A stretch of 64,000 nt of DNA from an uncultured Candidatus Saccharibacteria bacterium (GTDB lineage: Bacteria; Patescibacteriota; Minisyncoccia; Phycocordibacterales; Phycocordibacteraceae), in contig CAYSUL010000001.1 of NCBI GenBank assembly GCA_964434255.1, positions 104,856-168,855 on the forward strand. Reading direction: 5' to 3'. Both the position numbers and the translations under genes were made by a program. Positions 2,557 through 63,796 of the stretch are shown piece by piece; positions within the stretch are counted from its first letter, which is position 1, and each line of letters starts with the position of its first letter. A model generated the notes under the pieces. It did no database searches. It saw nothing but the letters and a program-made list of their open reading frames with translations, and was not told the DNA's origin.

Positions 2557-2946
2557 CTATGCTTCGAACGTGACCTGGAAGCTGTACATCCCCATGGCGC
2601 AGACCCCTTGCAGCGTGCTGCCTATCTTCTGCGGAGGCACCGTGACTTCGGTAACGCCGCTCGGCTCCATGGTCGTGCTATAGCCGAGACTCGGGATGCG
2701 GATGGCGGCCGAACAATCGTAGGTGCCGCTCGTCTTCACCCGAAGCACGGTGGGAACATCCGCTCGGGCGGTGCTCAGCTTGGGCGCATAGCCCCCCTTC
2801 GCATCGATCTCGATGACCTGCGTCTCCCCTTCCATGCGGACGTTAGCTGCTTGAGCTACGGGCTCGCCTTTGCTGGCGAACATCACGGCCCCACCGATAA
2901 CGAAGGCTGCGATGAGTATGGACGCCATAAGCGGAAGCTGCTTCAT
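2557..2946 (-). CDS. Membrane-anchored cupredoxin-like domain protein
   Basis: N-terminal TM helix followed by a beta-rich 100-aa domain typical of cupredoxin-like proteins encoded next to Cu-ATPases. It is the last gene of the csoR-copA operon. Confidence 0.5.
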   Translation of the reverse strand: MKQLPLMASILIAAFVIGGAVMFASKGEPVAQAANVRMEGETQVIEIDAKGGYAPKLSTARADVPTVLRVKTSGTYDCSAAIRIPSLGYSTTMEPSGVTEVTVPPQKIGSTLQGVCAMGMYSFQVTFEA

Positions 2947-3977: not shown

Positions 3978-6272
3978 CTAGAGCGTAACGGCCTTTAATC
4001 GAAGCGAATTGAGCACCACCGACACGCTCGAGAGCGCCATCGCGAGCCCCGCGATGACCGGGGACAAGAGTATCCCGAAGAACGGAAACAGGATGCCGGC
4101 AGCGATAGGAATACCGACGAGGTTGTAGAAGAATGCCCAGAACAGGTTCTGCTTGATGCCGCGCATCGTGAGGCGCGAGAGCTTTATGGCCTTCACAAGC
4201 TTCCCGATATCGCCTCCAAGGAGCGTGATCCCGGCCGTTTCTATCGCAACGTCCGTGCCCGTGCCCCTGGCCCTGCCTACAGCCGCTTGCGCGAGCGCCG
4301 GGGCATCGTTGCCGCCATCGCCCGCCATGGCCACGACATCCCCCTTCGCCTGGGTCCCCCGTAACGCTTCGAGCTTCACGTCGGTCCGGACTTCGGCCCC
4401 CGCCCCCTCCAGTCCCAACTCTCGGGCGAAAGCCGCTGCCGTTTGTTTATTATCGCCGGTAAGCATGACTATCGTGATGCCCATATGGTGCAGCGCCGCC
4501 ACTGCCGCTACGGACTCGGGCTTTATCGCGTCTGCGACGAGCACCAGAGCGATTATCTCTTTTTTGGTCGCGAGAACGATCGGCGTCCGTCCTTTAGCCG
4601 TATGCATCGCGAGCGAGTCCGTATCGAGCGGAAGCTTGAGATCACCGATGAGCTTCGTATTGCCCGCGAAGTATTCCGTTCCCTCCACGAGAGCTCGGAC
4701 CCCCTTCCCTTGGATGACTTCGAACCGCTCCGTCCGCACGGGCTCGACCGAGCGCTCGTGCGCATACGCGAGGACAGCCGTTGCGACCGGGTGCTCGGAC
4801 TTCTGCTCAAGCGAGGCGAGTATCCGTAGCACGTCCGTCTCGGTATGGTTCCCGTACGCCTCCACCACGACCACTTCGGGCTTTCCCTTCGTGATCGTGC
4901 CGGTCTTATCGACAACGATAGTATCCACCTCCTGGAGCTTCTGGAGCGTCGCGGCGTCCTTGATGAGGATGCCCTCCTGCGCTCCCTTGCCCACGCCCAC
5001 GATAACGGCGATAGGCGTCGCGAGCCCGAGCGCGCACGGGCACGCAATGACGAGGATGCCGACGAAGGACGTAAGGCCGAGCGAGAGCGCTGCAGCGAAC
5101 CCGAGCGCGGGTATGCCAAGGACAAGCCATGCCGCAAGTACGAGCACCGCGAATACGAGCACGATCGGGACGAAGACGCTCGAGAGCTTGTCGGCGAGCC
5201 CCTGTATAGGCGCCTTGCTGCCCTGCGCTTCGCCTACCATCCGTATGATGCTTGCAAGCAGGGTTTCAGAACCGACCTTCGTCGCCTTGAATATGAAATG
5301 GCCGTTCGTGTTTAGCGTGCCTGCCACGACGGTATCTCCCGGGTTTTTCTCCGCCGGCATCGGCTCGCCCGTGACCATGGACTCGTCTACGTACGAACTT
5401 CCTTCGGTGAGCACGCCGTCGACCGGAATCTTCCCGCCGGGCCGCACGACGACGAGGTCGCCATGCGTCACCTGGTCTACTGGAACGGACACCTCCTTCC
5501 CGTCCCGCATCAGGAATGCGGTCTTCGCCTGGAGGTTGAGCAGTTTCTCGATGGCGTCGCCGGTCTTGAGCTTCGAACGGGCTTCGAGGTATTTGCCGAG
5601 CGCGATGAATGCGATCACGACGATCGTGACGTCGTAGTAGGTTTGGTCGACGTTCAGCAGGCCTCGGAGCGGCTCCTCGAAGGCTGTAAGGATGAAGCTG
5701 TAGAGGAACGCGACCGAGGTGCCGATGCCGATGAGCGTATCCATGTTCGCCTTGCCGTAGCGGACGAAGCGGTAGAAGCCGAGCAGATAGGGCTTCCCTA
5801 CCACCACCATGGTGTAGGTCGCGAAGATAGGCAGGAGATGGTGGAAGAACTCGTACCAGATCAGAGGCATGGCAGCGAGCACACCGAACTCTCCCAGCAT
5901 CTCCCAACCCATGACGAAGACGCTGAACGCAGCGAGCGGCAGCACCGAGAGCACCTTCCATTGCATATCCTTAATCTCTTCGAGCTTCTCCGCCTTCGAT
6001 TGAGTGATGCCGGTGTGCGCGGCATGCTCGTCAGGGGACATATTCATGCTTTCGGCGGTAGGCACGACGAGCGAGTAGCCGAGGGGTTGTATCTGTTTGG
6101 AAAGCTCGTGGGGGTCCGTCTTCGACTCGTCGAACGCAATCTTCGCCGTTTCGGTGCCGTAACTGACTTCGACGTGCTCCACGCCCGCCACCTTCTTGAC
6201 CGCTCGCTCGATGATGCTCGCGCAGGAGGCGCAGTGCATTCCCTTGATCCGGTAGGTCTTATGGTCGCTCAT
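3978..6272 (-). CDS. copA: Copper-translocating P1B-type ATPase
   Basis: N-terminal HMA (GMHCASCA), the membrane CPC motif ([12 protein letters not shown]), DKTGTIT phosphorylation site and the [10 protein letters not shown] hinge. Total length 764 aa. Confidence 0.92.
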
Positions 6273-6608: not shown

Positions 6609-7058
6609 ATGAACCACAGCAAGAACTACCACCGACTCGCACTCATGTTCGGACTCCACCTCATCGCGATGTACATCCTCATGTACGCGATGGTGAATAC
6701 CTTCGCAAACGCGGTCCCGAACCATAATCAGCTCTATATGGCCGTGCTCATGGCCTCCCCGATGCTCGTGCTCGAGCTCTGGCTCATGGGTTCTATGTAT
6801 CAGAATAAGAAGCTGAACGGCGGGATCATCATTGCAGGGCTTCTCTTGCTTGTTGGCTCGTTCTTTTTCATCCGGCAGCAGACCGCCATTGCCGACGAGC
6901 AGTTCTTAAAATCGATGATCCCCCACCATGCCGGGGCCATCCTCATGTGCGAAAAGGCCGATCTCACGGATCCTCAAATAAAAGAGCTGTGCGGGAATAT
7001 CGTATCCGGCCAGCAGGCGGAGATAGATTGGATGAGGGCGAAGCTGGAAACGCTATAG
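6609..7058 (+). CDS. DUF305 family protein (copper-resistance associated, ferritin-like)
   Basis: Contains the HHxxAI motif (IPHHAGAILMC) with N-terminal TM helices. ATG at 6609-6611. Only the C-terminal 149 aa of the long 5463..7058 ORF is credible; the rest is antisense to copA. Confidence 0.65.
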   Translation: MNHSKNYHRLALMFGLHLIAMYILMYAMVNTFANAVPNHNQLYMAVLMASPMLVLELWLMGSMYQNKKLNGGIIIAGLLLLVGSFFFIRQQTAIADEQFLKSMIPHHAGAILMCEKADLTDPQIKELCGNIVSGQQAEIDWMRAKLETL

Positions 7059-7460
7059 AGCTAGCTCGTCGGTAGTCCCGCCTTCGTAGTGCTCATCATC
7101 CTTCTCGGCGTCCTTCTTGGTCTTGTGGACTATCGCATCCTCGTGGTGGGGCGGCGCGTAGAGAGTATAGAGCTTGAGGGCATCGCTTGAGGACAGGTTC
7201 TTGATATTGTGGCGCACGCCCGCGGGGATCACCACTGCCGATCCGTCGGTGAGATCGCGCTCGACGCCATCGAGGACGCTCTGCCCTTCCCCTTCCTCGA
7301 TGCGGATGAACTGATCGACGTCATGCACCTCCTCCCCGATGTCTTCGCCCGCTGGGATCGACATAAGGACGAGCTGGCAGTGCTCTGCGGTATACAGCAC
7401 GCGCCTGAAGTCCTCGTTCTCAAGGGTCTCGGCTTCTATATTGGTTACGAATCCTTTCAT
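7053..7460 (-). CDS. Cupin domain protein
   Basis: Two cupin motifs (G(x)5HxH-like: EEVHDVDQF; PAGVRHNIKN). Confidence 0.55.
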   Translation of the reverse strand: MKGFVTNIEAETLENEDFRRVLYTAEHCQLVLMSIPAGEDIGEEVHDVDQFIRIEEGEGQSVLDGVERDLTDGSAVVIPAGVRHNIKNLSSSDALKLYTLYAPPHHEDAIVHKTKKDAEKDDEHYEGGTTDELAL

Positions 7461-19548: not shown

Positions 19549-19624
19549 TGGAGCCGAAGGGGAGATTCGAACTCCCGACATTTCGCTTACGATGCGAACG
19601 CTCTACCAACTGAGCTACTTCGGC
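19549..19624 (-). tRNA. tRNA-Thr (anticodon CGU)
   Basis: 76-nt cloverleaf with anticodon loop AUCGUAA and an encoded CCA end. The ORF-track artefact EVAQLVERS is its translation. Confidence 0.85.
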
Positions 19625-19641: not shown

Positions 19642-20112
19642 TCATAATCCCGAATTCTTGCGAGAGCGTTTTCTATAAAGAAGGCCTGCCTCCTTCGCAC
19701 GATTACTGATAGCTCGGTTGGGCCTACCCTTACCTTTGTTTAAGGCAGCAAACGTGGTGGTAAGTGCATCACAATTCGGACAGAGAAGCCGTAGGTTCCC
19801 TTCAGAATTATTCCTCCAATTACCATCAATATGATCCGCCACGAGCGGCGCCTCTCCTGTTTTTGGGTTCTTTTCCGACCATCCGCACACACAGCATTTA
19901 TTTTCGAACTTCTCACGTAAATACCTTTTGACTGTCTTGTTGACCAAGCCAATACTAGTCAGTCCAGCTACTTCCCCAGATTTCCATCGCTTTATAAATA
20001 TCCTGTTTTGATATACGAACTGACACTTATTGCTGCAATATTTATAAGTGGAACGCGGAGTTTCTCCGCCACAAGCGAGACAGGGCGTCCTCGGCTTCTT
20101 CGGGTTCGGCAT
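19642..20112 (-). CDS. HNH endonuclease (low-GC, probably horizontally acquired)
   Basis: HNH motif (ADHIDGNWRNNSEGNLRLLCPNC) with N-terminal CxxC...C zinc-ribbon-like cysteines. Local GC about 45% versus about 60% background. Directly adjacent to tRNA-Thr. Confidence 0.7.
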   Translation of the reverse strand: MPNPKKPRTPCLACGGETPRSTYKYCSNKCQFVYQNRIFIKRWKSGEVAGLTSIGLVNKTVKRYLREKFENKCCVCGWSEKNPKTGEAPLVADHIDGNWRNNSEGNLRLLCPNCDALTTTFAALNKGKGRPNRAISNRAKEAGLLYRKRSRKNSGL

Positions 20113-21711: not shown

Positions 21712-21760
21712 TAGTTTCTTGCAAACACAAAACCGCCCACATGGACGGTTTTGTGAAGTG

Positions 21761-22042
21761 CGCGGTCGACCGGACTTGAACCGGCAACCTTCCGCGTGCA
21801 TGCTACCCCCCTACTTTCGTAGGGGCATGGACTATATCTTCACCATAGGTTTCCCCGTAGGTGCTCCGGTATCTAGTCTCTACGGCGCCCCCCTCCGAGT
21901 GAGGGGGTTCCCTCGGTATTCGCATATCCTGGTAGACCAGGACTTAGCATTCACCGATATCCCAGAGAGTTTCAACTTGACTTTCGAACAAGAAGCTGCC
22001 TAATCGACAGGCGGATGCTCTAACCAGTTGAGCTACGACCGC
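21761..22042 (-). tRNA. tRNA-Asp (anticodon GUC) interrupted by a 208-nt group I intron in the anticodon loop
   Basis: Exon 1 (22042-22007) is GCGGTCGTAGCTCAACTGGTTAGAGCATCCGCCUGU. Exon 2 (21798-21761) is CACGCGGAAGGTTGCCGGTTCAAGTCCGGTCGACCGCG. The spliced product folds as tRNA-Asp with loop CUGUCAC and discriminator G73. Confidence 0.6.
21799..22006 (-). ncRNA. Group I self-splicing intron (ORF-less, compact) within tRNA-Asp
   Basis: Contains group I core elements in the correct order: R-like GTAGAGACTAGA, a P4-like CGGGGAAACC and the S element AAGATATAGTCC. P1 can form between exon CUGU|C and intron GGCAG with a U-G pair at the splice site. The intron ends in G before the 3' exon. Confidence 0.55.
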
Positions 22043-22120: not shown

Positions 22121-22197
22121 TGGTGCCGACGGCAGGGAACGATCCTGCGACCTTAGCTTTATGAGTGCTACGCTCTAACCAACTGAGCTACGTCGGC
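22121..22197 (-). tRNA. tRNA with CAU anticodon (elongator Met or Ile2/lysidine type), atypical A54/U58 T-loop
   Basis: Cloverleaf with acceptor GCCGACG/CGTCGGC, anticodon loop CUCAUAA and T-arm GCAGG-ATCGTTC-CCTGC. CCA is encoded. No initiator features (G1-C72). Confidence 0.7.
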
Positions 22198-22876
22198 AAT
22201 TCTCGATTTGAGCAATGCGCTCTATATAGGCCAATATCTTGTCTCTAATATCTGTACCCTTTGAGACACGCAATGCCAGAACACCATAATACACATCGCG
22301 GTTCTCGTAAATCTTTTTCCCTCTATCTAGGAAGGTGGTGCGTCGGAATTGACTAATCGGAATATCGAGAGCCTTGCTCCAAAACCGTAGAATGTCTGTC
22401 TCGCGGTCGCGATGCGTGTCGCTTATGAATATCCGTGGCATGAAACGAGACTTCTCCACCTCGAGACATTCCATGAACCAACGACTCATGAGTTGAATGA
22501 CCCGTGGGTCTGAATTTATCAGAGCGAGCGACCCAGAGTTCGATTTAACGCCCTCTCCCCAGTACAAGCCTATCCCGATTAGGAACAGCTCCCTATCCGT
22601 AAGATCAGGCAGAATGTTGATAGCTTCTTCCTGCGCGACTTTCAGACGATTCGATCGCTTCATTCTATTCATCTCAGCCCCAATCATCCGTCCGCGATGG
22701 CCTGCCACTATCTGTTTCGCATGAAGTACCTCCTTTTGCTCCGGTGTTAACTCGATATCTCGAAGCCACAAACTGACCGTGCTGGGAGCGATTTTTATCG
22801 CCCGGCCTATTTCCTTAACGCTCATCCCTTTCCGCCTCAGTTCGATAGCCCTTCGTTTCTCCTCTGGTTTAGCCAT
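22175..22876 (-). CDS. HTH domain protein with LAGLIDADG-like (GLYWGEG) motif; putative free-standing homing endonuclease (paralog of 59121..59795)
   Basis: N-terminal HTH (MSVKEIGRAIKIAPSTVSLWL) followed by FLIGIGLYWGEGVKS, resembling the LAGLIDADG block (cf. GLWIGDG). Low local GC. Its 3' end overlaps the first 23 nt of the downstream tRNA. Confidence 0.45.
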   Translation of the reverse strand: MAKPEEKRRAIELRRKGMSVKEIGRAIKIAPSTVSLWLRDIELTPEQKEVLHAKQIVAGHRGRMIGAEMNRMKRSNRLKVAQEEAINILPDLTDRELFLIGIGLYWGEGVKSNSGSLALINSDPRVIQLMSRWFMECLEVEKSRFMPRIFISDTHRDRETDILRFWSKALDIPISQFRRTTFLDRGKKIYENRDVYYGVLALRVSKGTDIRDKILAYIERIAQIENCRRSSVG

Positions 22877-34827: not shown

Positions 34828-34835
34828 GCTTCTTG

Positions 34836-34906
34836 TTGCGGGGGCCGGAATCGAACCGGCGTCTGGAGGTTATGAGCCTCCCGAGGTACCTCTCCTCTAC
34901 CCCGCT
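34836..34906 (-). tRNA. Initiator tRNA-fMet (anticodon CAU)
   Basis: 1:72 mismatch (A1 with A72), A11:U24 in the D-stem and anticodon loop CUCAUAA. The T-arm and acceptor 3' strand are nearly identical to E. coli tRNA-fMet (GGTTCGATTCCGGCCCCCGCAA). Only two G-C pairs at the base of the anticodon stem. Confidence 0.7.
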
Positions 34907-58978: not shown

Positions 58979-59001
58979 AGATTCCCCAAGGGAATGAGGG
59001 A

Positions 59002-59034
59002 CTCAGGCGCTCGCGCCTGAGTCGTTTCCTTTTG
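59002..59034 (+). terminator. Rho-independent terminator (CTCAGGCG-CTCG-CGCCTGAG + TCGTTTCCTTTT)
   Basis: 8-bp G/C stem with a tetraloop and T-rich tail. Confidence 0.5.
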
Positions 59035-59108
59035 TGCGCCCGGCAGGGCACGATCCTGCGACCCCCCGGATATAAGCCGGGTGCTCTGACCAACTGAGCT
59101 ACGGGCGC
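59035..59108 (-). tRNA. tRNA-Ile (anticodon UAU), atypical A54/U58 T-loop
   Basis: Acceptor GCGCCCG/CGGGCGC, anticodon stem CCCGG/CCGGG with loop CUUAUAU. The D-arm and T-arm (GCAGG-ATCGTGC-CCTGC) are nearly identical to the CAU tRNA at 22121..22197. Confidence 0.65.
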
Positions 59109-59120
59109 TCCATCATGGAA

Positions 59121-59795
59121 TCACGGAGGTAAGTTCCGTGCAAATGTATCGCGAATACTTTCGAGGCATGCGTGCACATATTCGGATACATCGCGATTCC
59201 CATAGAGGATATTGCAGGTTCCATGAGTGAACCGTTGCGTGTAGGTAAGTCCGCTTCGGCTCGATGACTTGATGTATGGTTTTCGGAAAGCCGTTCTCGG
59301 CAGATCTAGTACCTCTGACCAATAATTCAATTCGGCTTCCGCATCCATGTCCTGATAAAGATGTATGCACACCTTCAATTTCTCTCTCGGCACGCCGAAC
59401 ATTTCCAGCCATTTGATAAAGAAGATCAATACCGCGGGATCCGTGTTCGATATAGCAGTAAGAGTATTCTGAGTCTTACTCCCTTCACCCCAATATAGAA
59501 ACAGGCCCGCTATGAACATTTCACGTTCGGACAGTGTAGAGACATCTTTCGCTGCGCGTTCATAGACTCCCTCAAGTCGTGTGCGTTTCTTCAGCGCCTT
59601 CGTCTCTCGACACTTCTCAATCCTGCGCTCACTCCATCCACGCAGCTCGTTGATTCGCTCTCGAGAAAGCGGATAGTCCTGCAACCAGATACTTAGTGTC
59701 CCCTTACTTACACCAAGCGCCGCTTTTATCTGGCTGTAGCTCATCTGCTGCATCCGCATTTCAAGCGCTCGCGCCTTTAATTCTCGTTTAGCCAT
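59121..59795 (-). CDS. HTH domain protein with LAGLIDADG-like (GLFLYWGEG) motif; putative homing endonuclease (paralog of 22175..22876)
   Basis: Collinear similarity to the 22175..22876 product (MAKxE..., LSIWLQD, FIAGLFLYWGEGSK, ISNTDP, WSEVLDLP). Low GC. Located 13 nt upstream of tRNA-Ile(UAU). Confidence 0.45.
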   Translation of the reverse strand: MAKRELKARALEMRMQQMSYSQIKAALGVSKGTLSIWLQDYPLSRERINELRGWSERRIEKCRETKALKKRTRLEGVYERAAKDVSTLSEREMFIAGLFLYWGEGSKTQNTLTAISNTDPAVLIFFIKWLEMFGVPREKLKVCIHLYQDMDAEAELNYWSEVLDLPRTAFRKPYIKSSSRSGLTYTQRFTHGTCNILYGNRDVSEYVHACLESIRDTFARNLPP

Positions 59796-59914
59796 AGTAC
59801 TTAGGAGTAGTGCACACAAAGTACTAACTCCTAGTTCAAATATTCCTGGAGAAATAATAGGGGAAAGCTGAAAACCGCCGAGACATATGTCTCGGCGGTT
59901 TTCATGTGAGTTAC

Positions 59915-63292: not shown

Positions 63293-63699
63293 GGGGGTGA
63301 CCGGCTTTGACGGTCTGTACTTTGAGAGACGTGCGACGCGATGGAAGATTGCTGACCATCTAAATCCCGCAATCAACCAATACTTGCAAACAAAACTGTT
63401 GCAAGCGTAAAGTCTCCGTACTTCGGTAAGGAAAGCTTTGCGTTCGCTTACGCGTAAAAGCTTCGCGCTTTCGCCTAAGCGACGTCTTTTTCTCTCGGTT
63501 CTCGTAGCGAGGGGAAGGGGCGGAATCTTCTACGGGATCGGCTCGTGCTCTCCTAGGCACCGAGCTTAAACAACAGGATCAGGAAGGAGCGTTTTCGCTA
63601 GCGTTCTTATTCTCCTTCTGAAGCATCAACACTAGCTATGCGTCGTAGATTCGTCCTCAAAGCCAGATTCGGACCGGAGTTCAACTCTCCGCACCTCCA
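63293..63699 (+). ncRNA. ssrA: tmRNA (SsrA)
   Basis: 5' GGGGGUGACCGGCUUUGACGG resembles the tmRNA 5' end. The 3' tRNA-like T-arm GGAGTTCAACTCTCC is followed by acceptor CACCUCC-A-CC, giving the alanine determinant G3-U70. An internal tag ORF appears to end ...FAFAYA-stop. Located after smpB. Confidence 0.7.
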
Positions 63700-63796
63700 C
63701 CTAGTTTCACTAAAGGCCTCGAAAGAGGCCTTTAGTGTTGGCGTGTCTTGATGGATTGGAGGTTCTAATCTTTCGCAGCAACCTCTAAAAATTCCC

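Follow-up and report, generated by a model that had tools for sequence, protein, structure and literature searches.

The DNA examined here is a stretch of 64,000 nucleotides (nt), hereafter the window, from an uncultured Candidatus Saccharibacteria bacterium (contig CAYSUL010000001.1), and the subject is a small open reading frame (ORF) within it, ORF2, which is lodged between ftsH and a gene for transfer RNA (tRNA) Ile bearing the anticodon UAU (Table 1). The two share a strand and are 12 nt apart, the end of the ORF facing the 5′ side of the tRNA; the tRNA gene is uninterrupted and its cloverleaf passes the Rfam RF00005 gathering score (65.6 versus 29 bits). An inverted repeat, aaaaccgccgaga/tctcggcggtttt, lies at 59871..59902, inside the spacer between ftsH and ORF2. 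In the list of open reading frames ORF2 starts at a TTG codon (59121..59819, minus strand); judging from sequence comparison the true start is the ATG at 59795, giving a protein that begins MAKRELK, because an identical database protein of 224 amino acids (aa) exists and all homologues begin with MAK or MAL. The Rfam scan of the whole window found no intron at this locus, and an intron- or intein-encoded endonuclease was ruled out for ORF2, as the ORF lies outside the adjoining tRNA, which is intact. ORF2 has a paralogue in the window, ORF1, paired with an elongator-type tRNA(CAU). An earlier note on this DNA had described the two pairs as paralogous cassettes, and both were found where it had placed them (ARAGORN, Rfam, ORFs), each ORF on the 5′ side of its tRNA; its further remark that they sit between recG and ftsH applies to the ORF2 cassette and fails for that of ORF1.

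Table 1. Positions of the features discussed, in the window and at related loci (named in the first column)
Feature	Position	Strand	Support
tRNA-Ile, anticodon UAU, anticodon loop CUUAUAU, T-loop A54/U58	59034..59108	-	ARAGORN; Rfam RF00005 65.6 bits, E=4.9e-12
ORF2 (family A), 224 aa + TGA stop, helix-turn-helix then predicted LAGLIDADG-fold domain	59121..59795	-	identical database protein P0001
ORF2 N-terminal helix-turn-helix, aa 1-41, homeodomain-like / transposase-type HTH_23	59673..59795	-	
ORF2 C-terminal predicted LAGLIDADG-fold domain, aa 84-224, without any Pfam model	59124..59546	-	
ORF2 motif L-Y-W-G-E-G-S-K, aa 100-107	59475..59498	-	
G+C-rich hairpin then T-run, terminator-like on the plus strand, between recG-side genes and tRNA-Ile(UAU) 3′ end	59000..59023	+	
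Spacer of 119 nt, ftsH stop (59915) to ORF2 start	59796..59914	-	sequence
ORF1 (family B), 233 aa from MAKPE, ORF2 paralogue; last 23 nt overlap tRNA(CAU)	22175..22876	-	
tRNA(CAU), elongator type (G1-C72, A31.A39 mismatch, loop CUCAUAA), ORF1 partner	22121..22197	-	ARAGORN; Rfam RF00005 64.2 bits
Nested tRNA structure, L179	2963..3255		
Nested tRNA structure, L147	3035..3237		
Nested tRNA structure, L134	10086..10393		
Nested tRNA structure, L181	136..383		
Third-family ORF, L054	6225..6908		
Third-family ORFs, L211-L214	1501..~2175		

The N-termini of ORF1 and ORF2 both match the Pfam helix-turn-helix (HTH) model HTH_23 above cutoff, and nothing in Pfam, NCBIfam or PHROGs covers the C-terminal domain of ORF2. 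Structure searches with the AlphaFold model of the full-length protein (predicted local distance difference test score, pLDDT, 85) were ambiguous because the HTH dominates. By sequence the case for a LAGLIDADG domain is thin, and it is structure that decides the matter: the C-terminal domain has the alpha-beta-beta-alpha-beta-beta-alpha core of LAGLIDADG enzymes and is predicted to be a LAGLIDADG fold, so that the LAGLIDADG-like label of the earlier note is upheld at the level of fold. A profile of 36 members of the ORF2 family (family A) returned a single match in the PDB, I-DmoI (E=1.6e-4), with the family A sequence LYWGEGsKT aligned to LYVAEGDKT in the second motif of that enzyme. When the domain was taken by itself and the profile widened to families A and B (the latter that of ORF1) and three other paralogues, the search lost this match and found no LAGLIDADG protein in the PDB, and the sequence link to I-DmoI is therefore particular to the family A profile. 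The Pfam models LAGLIDADG_1, LAGLIDADG_2 and LAGLIDADG_3 gave no match in ORF1, ORF2 or 10 two-domain relatives, and Hom_end matches weakly (E ~0.02) in 3 of the 36 members.

A motif helix of the LAGLIDADG kind (...AGLFLYWGEG) is present in ORF2 and ends in a conserved acid, E104, which aligns with E117, a catalytic residue of I-DmoI. E104, G105 and K107 are invariant in family A. The motif helix ends in a Gly-Glu-Gly that does not vary in either family A or family B, so a catalytic-type acid is kept in both; the Lys three residues later is at least 90% conserved. The same pattern, a motif helix closing with a conserved acid and then Gly (LYWGEG here, LYVAEG in I-DmoI) and a conserved Lys three residues later, is seen in I-CreI, I-CeuI, I-MsoI and I-DmoI. 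ORF2 differs from these enzymes in lying outside an intron or intein, in carrying an additional N-terminal HTH and long linker helix, in going unrecognised by the Pfam LAGLIDADG models and, in the predicted model, in having an extra helix between core strands 3 and 4; its activity is likewise predicted. As with single-motif LAGLIDADG enzymes, there is one domain per chain, fused two-domain relatives exist and the gene is sporadic at a fixed site. The fused relatives, of 400-576 aa, hold two HTH-plus-domain units per chain (P0255, P0257, P0286, P0339, P0344), and tandem fusion is the usual route from a LAGLIDADG homodimer to a monomer.

An exhaustive profile search placed these proteins in a superfamily of 4470 clusters at 50% identity, most entries of which are nameless or 'hypothetical protein', with a few named 'transposase-like' or 'transcriptional regulator'; some sources apply the label 'transposase-like' to family B. 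A transposase of the IS630/Tc1 type, or another HTH transposase, was rejected, as the HTH alone matches transposase models, and far below cutoffs, the C-terminal domain has the predicted LAGLIDADG fold, and neither inverted repeats nor duplications surround the ORF-bearing cassettes.

Family A holds more than 2148 database proteins, nearly all unnamed or 'hypothetical' (two say 'predicted transcriptional regulator'), and every organism name supplied for them is of a Patescibacteria or Candidate Phyla Radiation (CPR) lineage. When one genome was scanned for each GTDB species, 397 loci were confirmed, and the best 80 of these were analysed. The tRNA-Ile(UAU) gene adjoins the ORF in all 85 loci available (80/80 from GTDB and 5/5 ORF-bearing metagenome loci); these were selected by the protein and are related to one another, and so are not independent trials. 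Where ORF and tRNA share a strand (75 loci) the gap between them has a median of 12 nt and extremes of -15 and +94 nt, and in 18 of the 75 the U8-A9-G10 of the tRNA itself serves as the stop codon of the ORF. The gene upstream of the ORF is ftsH at 63 of the 81 loci; on the downstream side the neighbours vary. The tRNA lies on the opposite strand in 10 loci, and in seven of these the ORF stop is 1-4 nt from the tRNA 3′ end or overlaps it, the remaining gaps being 16, 48 and 446 nt; rearrangement has in this way kept the ORF at one or the other end of the tRNA. As these 10 are spread over at least five separate groups on a neighbour-joining tree of family A, the arrangement has been remade several times.

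The converse association was sampled from the tRNA, taking the first 120 matches to one tRNA-Ile(UAU) D-arm pattern among metagenome contigs. Many of these are phage tRNA clusters or belong to other phyla, without the ORF; 32 were classed as Patescibacteria-like on the grounds that flanking proteins are at least 45% identical to proteins of the reference loci, and five of the 32 carry the ORF. Fifteen Patescibacteria-like loci with at least 750 nt on both sides have no intact ORF, one of them, L143, retaining a remnant. The dependence is thus one-way: the ORF requires the tRNA gene, while the tRNA can do without the ORF. This speaks against an indispensable regulator or processing factor and in favour of an element homed at, or targeting, the tRNA gene. 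Twelve further metagenome matches (L098, L102, L119, L120, L128, L145, L148, L152, L167, L168, L189, L198) show tRNA 5′ halves that end in CTTAT and are not called by ARAGORN; these may be intron-containing or broken tRNA-Ile(UAU) genes of other organisms.

Comparison of close relatives reveals the site with and without its occupant. L030, which has the ORF, and L179, which lacks it, share 80% nucleotide identity in ftsH and 96% in the tRNA; the ~735 nt that hold the ORF in L030 fit exactly between the ftsH stop and tRNA position -3, and homology with L179 resumes 3 nt before the tRNA. L058 (with) and L191 (without) have flanks of 77-80% nucleotide identity, and in L191 ftsH runs straight into the tRNA; L138, L165 and L206 are further empty sites with the tRNA directly after ftsH. 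In L143, whose neighbouring proteins are 87-93% identical to those of L019 and L021, both with the whole gene, all that is left is a stop-riddled C-terminal remnant (...SGLSYKQRFAHGTCKVIDNRDLSEKF, followed by two stops) beside an identical tRNA. Sporadic presence at one site together with a degenerate copy is the distribution expected of a homing endonuclease. Of the claim in the earlier note that the cassette is mobile, mobility of some form is borne out by the empty sites and pseudogene in close relatives; the check it proposed for empty sites and target-site duplications likewise yielded the former (L179, L191) and none of the latter around ORF-bearing cassettes.

On balance it is judged moderately probable that ORF2 is a free-standing, single-domain homing endonuclease of LAGLIDADG type with an added HTH, residing at the tRNA-Ile(UAU) gene and probably targeting it; nuclease activity, dimerisation, the tRNA gene as cleavage target and homing itself are inferred. 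Having one LAGLIDADG domain, the protein would probably act as a homodimer, with the N-terminal HTH as an extra DNA-binding module. The gene occupies the handful of bases that separate ftsH from the tRNA on its 5′ side, is probably co-transcribed with the tRNA and appears to persist as a selfish element. When an allele without the ORF is encountered, for instance through DNA uptake, the tRNA gene or the DNA directly beside it would be cleaved by the enzyme, and recombinational repair from the ORF-carrying allele would copy the ORF in; where such encounters do not occur, the gene would decay or be deleted. ORF1, an old paralogue, would behave in the same way at the tRNA(CAU) gene.

Several results weigh against this proposal. 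At the 49 loci compared, all having ftsH on the upstream side, pairwise identities of ORF and FtsH are correlated (Pearson r=0.61; means of 51% for the ORF and 63% for FtsH), and among these loci there is no pair in which the ORF is much more similar than FtsH and no sign of long-range transfer. From these comparisons transmission looks mainly vertical, or confined to exchange between close relatives, and it could therefore be that every empty site arose when a long-resident gene was lost, which is where the homing model is weakest. A mean identity of ~51% with many invariant residues across a whole bacterial class is high for a purely selfish gene and would suit a function for the host equally. 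Comparison of the ORF-linked with the ORF-less tRNA alleles gave no resistance-type difference: C at position 38 occurs in 69% versus 44%, and neither this nor any other simple allele difference splits cleanly enough to be kept as a resistance mark. Lastly, the ORF-bearing loci have no flanking repeats, target duplications or half-tRNA scars around them.

It is here that a second explanation has to be weighed, namely that the protein is a domesticated LAGLIDADG/HTH DNA-binding protein in the manner of WhiA, which sits on the tRNA gene, controls transcription of the tRNA or of the ftsH-tRNA region and is not mobile, the genomes without the ORF having lost a non-essential regulator. The strong conservation and largely vertical inheritance with ftsH speak for it, as do the head-to-tail packing with the tRNA, which suggests one transcript, and the database name 'transcriptional regulator' on some members. 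WhiA (DUF199) is a conserved housekeeping regulator with two degenerate LAGLIDADG domains and a C-terminal HTH, and is reported in the paper on its structure to have lost the catalytic acids. ORF2, in contrast, has a single domain, an N-terminal HTH and an invariant catalytic-type acid, and its gene is dispensable in relatives, so that the WhiA pattern is not found; most sampled relatives with the same tRNA at the same place lack the gene, which also decays to a pseudogene. Moreover, a tRNA on the other strand that still touches the ORF (seven of 10 such loci) cannot be explained by a shared promoter, and nuclease genes, some of them relatives and some not, turn up here and there beside other tRNA genes. 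A domesticated regulator is regarded as unlikely.

The tRNA-Ile(UAU) locus has also been rearranged in ways that bear on how the gene might move. In seven ORF-less loci of Patescibacteria type (L179, L147, L134, L181, L177, L095, L169) an intact tRNA-Ile(UAU) is flanked by half-copies of itself, of the 5′ kind, the 3′ kind or both: the 5′ halves end at positions 36/37 (CTTAT(A)|), the 3′ halves start at 34-38, and some overlap by 2-3 nt. L179 has two successive 5′ half-copies. The inner tRNA is often bracketed by inverted repeats of 11-22 bp; counted from 8 bp upwards, such repeats occur around 7 of 100 ORF-less tRNA-Ile(UAU) genes, none of 85 ORF-linked ones and 1 of 358 other tRNAs. Close relatives whose flanking genes share ~80% DNA identity can also differ in the tRNA itself. 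L062 (4655..4728) and L105 (5918..5991) are almost the same except for three compensated pairs of the acceptor stem (GCACGCA versus CCACCCT), the L105 copy being inverted as well, and L058 (4706..4779) and L191 (4194..4268) have an altogether different tRNA-Ile(UAU) at the same site. Taken together, these sequences point to recurrent breakage or recombination in the tRNA-Ile(UAU) gene with breakpoints in the anticodon loop; since nested structures are seen only at loci lacking the ORF, that the protein causes them is hypothetical.

Such structures would be the footprints expected if the protein were instead the mobility enzyme of a small tRNA-carrying element, which cuts the resident anticodon loop so that a whole replacement tRNA, with or without the ORF, is inserted. 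The half-tRNA flanks, the excess of inverted repeats at ORF-less genes, the differing tRNA alleles of close relatives and the transposase-type HTH can all be read in this way, and the partner anticodons of three families in this superfamily (UAU, CAU and, as described below, UAC) differ by single steps. The nested structures are, however, confined to ORF-less loci, and no half-tRNA or inverted repeat stands beside any ORF-bearing cassette; the flanking repeats vary in sequence from locus to locus, and an RNA stem fits them as well as transposon ends would. In addition, the inner tRNA has the same anticodon loop as the broken outer copy and would therefore be a target itself. A tRNA-carrying element is accordingly given little weight and is considered improbable. 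On a further and decidedly speculative reading, the superfamily as a whole would consist of 'tRNA-gene drives', each paralogue recognising and cutting the anticodon stem-loop region of one tRNA gene and travelling with or next to a working copy. Were this doubtful idea true, tRNA-Ile(UAU) would owe its spread through Patescibacteria in part to the cassette, as would AUA decoding independent of TilS, and the nested tRNAs, tRNA inversions and acceptor-stem swaps would be scars of drive activity.

ORF1 and ORF2 are true paralogues and are built alike, with the HTH first and a LAGLIDADG-like domain after it; they show 33% identity over 182 aa (BLASTP E=2e-27, far past the 0.01 at which the earlier note would have given up the relationship). 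The motifs quoted in that note are all present and collinear in the two (MAKxE, LSIWL/VSLWL, LYWGEGxK, ISNTDP/INSDP, WSEVLDLP/WSKALDIP), the tRNA-like sequences pass the covariance-model threshold that it set as a condition (65.6 and 64.2 bits, where Rfam asks for 29), and its description of them as AUG- and AUA-reading tRNAs is correct by anticodon; the CAU tRNA may be either an elongator Met or a lysidine-type Ile2. Its proposal that the nuclease-plus-tRNA module was duplicated within this genome does not stand: the ORFs are only 33% identical and belong to separate, widespread families that have their own tRNA partners across Patescibacteria, while the tRNAs are no closer overall than unrelated tRNAs (whole-length identity is 70% for tRNA-Ile(UAU) and tRNA(CAU), and 76% for tRNA(CAU) and tRNA-Thr(CGU)). 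A recent duplication is thereby ruled out. Because of the low identity, and because each family keeps its own tRNA partner across Patescibacteria, the duplication that gave rise to ORF1 and ORF2 is, by sequence comparison, an ancient one, the two now representing old and separate Patescibacteria families.

The shared A54/U58 T-arm, noted earlier as a common mark of the two cassettes, is indeed present in both window tRNAs: they have the T-loop A54-U55-C56-G57-U58 (GGATCGTKCC) in common, and their variable-plus-T-arm segments are identical at 22 of 23 positions. As a marker of the cassette it was rejected. Among 81 ORF-linked tRNA-Ile(UAU) genes (the 80 GTDB loci and the window) A54/U58 is found in the window and L007 only, L059 has A54/A58 and the rest have the ordinary GGTTCGA, so the feature is a peculiarity of this lineage. 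Several Patescibacteria tRNA(CAU) genes have unusual T-loops without the near-universal U54-U55 (TGCAAAT, CGCGACT; L084 3686..3760, L089 3676..3750 and 2830..2902, L088 3678..3752), and the A54/U58 of the window is therefore one of several odd T-loops in the group.

Family B, to which ORF1 belongs, has more than 180 database proteins. All six independent contigs examined have a tRNA(CAU) of elongator type, which begins within the ORF or directly behind it, and then tRNA-Asp; the A31.A39 mismatch is common to all the family B partner tRNAs. A second CAU tRNA in the window, at 34835..34906 (minus strand), has an A1.A72 mismatch and a G+C-rich anticodon stem and so looks like an initiator, and the same type of sequence recurs upstream of family B in L086, L088 and L090. 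The tRNA-Asp(GUC) gene near ORF1 (21760..22042, minus strand) is interrupted behind anticodon position 35, where a group I intron ~208 nt long is inserted (21799..22006; Rfam Intron_gpI 44.9 bits, E=4e-10, slightly below the gathering score), and was missed by ARAGORN and by the default Rfam scan. Insertion of this 35/36 type has been reported for Patescibacteria (PMC13011429).

A further reading is a role directed at RNA, in which the proteins would be maturase-like LAGLIDADG factors or tRNA-binding factors that aid the processing or stability of the adjacent tRNA or, for ORF1, act on the tRNA-Asp group I intron, two genes downstream. LAGLIDADG proteins are known to moonlight as intron maturases, which speaks for such a role. 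The partner tRNAs also read the AUA/AUG pair, for which accurate decoding needs special handling (PMC3575796). Nevertheless, the tRNA works without the ORF in most relatives, the N-terminal domain is an HTH of DNA-binding type, and a factor acting on RNA in trans would not have to be encoded only a few nucleotides from the gene, whichever the strand. Family B is also present where tRNA-Asp has no intron (L084, L086, L088-L090), and ORF1 was on this account rejected as a maturase of the tRNA-Asp intron. An RNA-directed role is thus held to be very improbable.

Other members of the superfamily are likewise found at tRNA genes. A paralogue in L054 led to a third family, of 752 database proteins; in five of five loci its ORF follows tRNA-Val(UAC) at a distance of 45-77 nt. 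A tie to tRNA-Phe was considered for it and rejected: tRNA-Phe sometimes follows, and the constant neighbour is the upstream tRNA-Val(UAC). Further paralogues, a LAGLIDADG_3 ORF and an HNH ORF occur sporadically at other tRNA genes. A distant paralogue in L086 (4612..5304) reads into a tRNA-Thr(GGU) gene (~5215..5490) whose anticodon loop is interrupted by ~200 nt and which is called by neither ARAGORN nor Rfam, and another in L192 (13770..14642) adjoins tRNA-Gly(GCC). In L048 a canonical two-motif LAGLIDADG_3 ORF (6670..7386; Pfam E=4e-8) overlaps the 5′ end of tRNA-Leu(GAG); this ORF is present at the rplS-tRNA-Leu junction of L048 and there is none at that of L054.

Among the nearest analogues is SegB of phage T4, a free-standing homing endonuclease in a tRNA cluster that cuts the tRNA region of related genomes and so promotes the inheritance of its own region. 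What SegB does at tRNA loci is a topic of PMC13096335 as well. ORF2 resembles it as a free-standing nuclease-like gene lodged among tRNA genes; it differs in that SegB is a phage GIY-YIG enzyme whereas ORF2 is a LAGLIDADG-fold protein, by prediction, of a cellular genome, in that family A is tied to one tRNA species across a whole bacterial class, and in that there are several paralogous families, each with its own tRNA. Within the same phylum, LAGLIDADG endonucleases of rRNA introns and group I introns of tRNA genes are also selfish elements in stable-RNA genes (PMC13011429); those split the RNA gene from inside introns, whereas ORF2 lies outside an intact tRNA. A 2026 survey of Patescibacteria reported that most tRNA introns are without endonuclease genes, and 'UAU' does not appear in its text (PMC13011429). 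As for the tRNA, Mycoplasma mobile decodes AUA with tRNA-Ile(UAU) and without TilS, in place of the usual CAU anticodon with lysidine (PMC3575796). Both are bacterial tRNA-Ile genes with a UAU anticodon of unmodified type; a link to a nuclease-like gene is not part of the Mycoplasma system. Literature searches on LAGLIDADG proteins, tRNA and Patescibacteria, on tilS or lysidine in CPR/Patescibacteria and on free-standing homing endonucleases at tRNA genes returned no earlier account of an HTH-LAGLIDADG family bound to particular tRNA genes.

If the homing endonuclease interpretation is true, the superfamily would be a new branch of LAGLIDADG endonucleases, and individual tRNA genes, beyond their introns, would be long-term homes of selfish nucleases in the streamlined genomes of Patescibacteria, with separate paralogues specialising on tRNA-Ile(UAU), tRNA(CAU) and tRNA-Val(UAC). 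It would provide testable pairs of enzyme and target and new meganuclease scaffolds with an added HTH, as well as a mechanistic reason for the rearrangements around the tRNA-Ile(UAU) gene; this tRNA, the less usual bacterial reader of AUA, would be flagged as a locus under unusual genetic conflict.

Two other features of the window may be recorded. A gene for transfer-messenger RNA (tmRNA) lies at 63293..63701 (plus strand), ~3 kb past ftsH, and the tmRNA/ftsH/ORF/tRNA-Ile neighbourhood recurs in 15 of the 80 related GTDB loci (L001, L007, L013 and L018 among them). An HNH endonuclease ORF of 156 aa (19642..20112, minus strand), which matches PHROG HNH families with E down to 3e-16, stops 17 nt short of tRNA-Thr(CGU) (19549..19624, minus strand), and is a third nuclease-plus-tRNA pair in the window, of unrelated fold.

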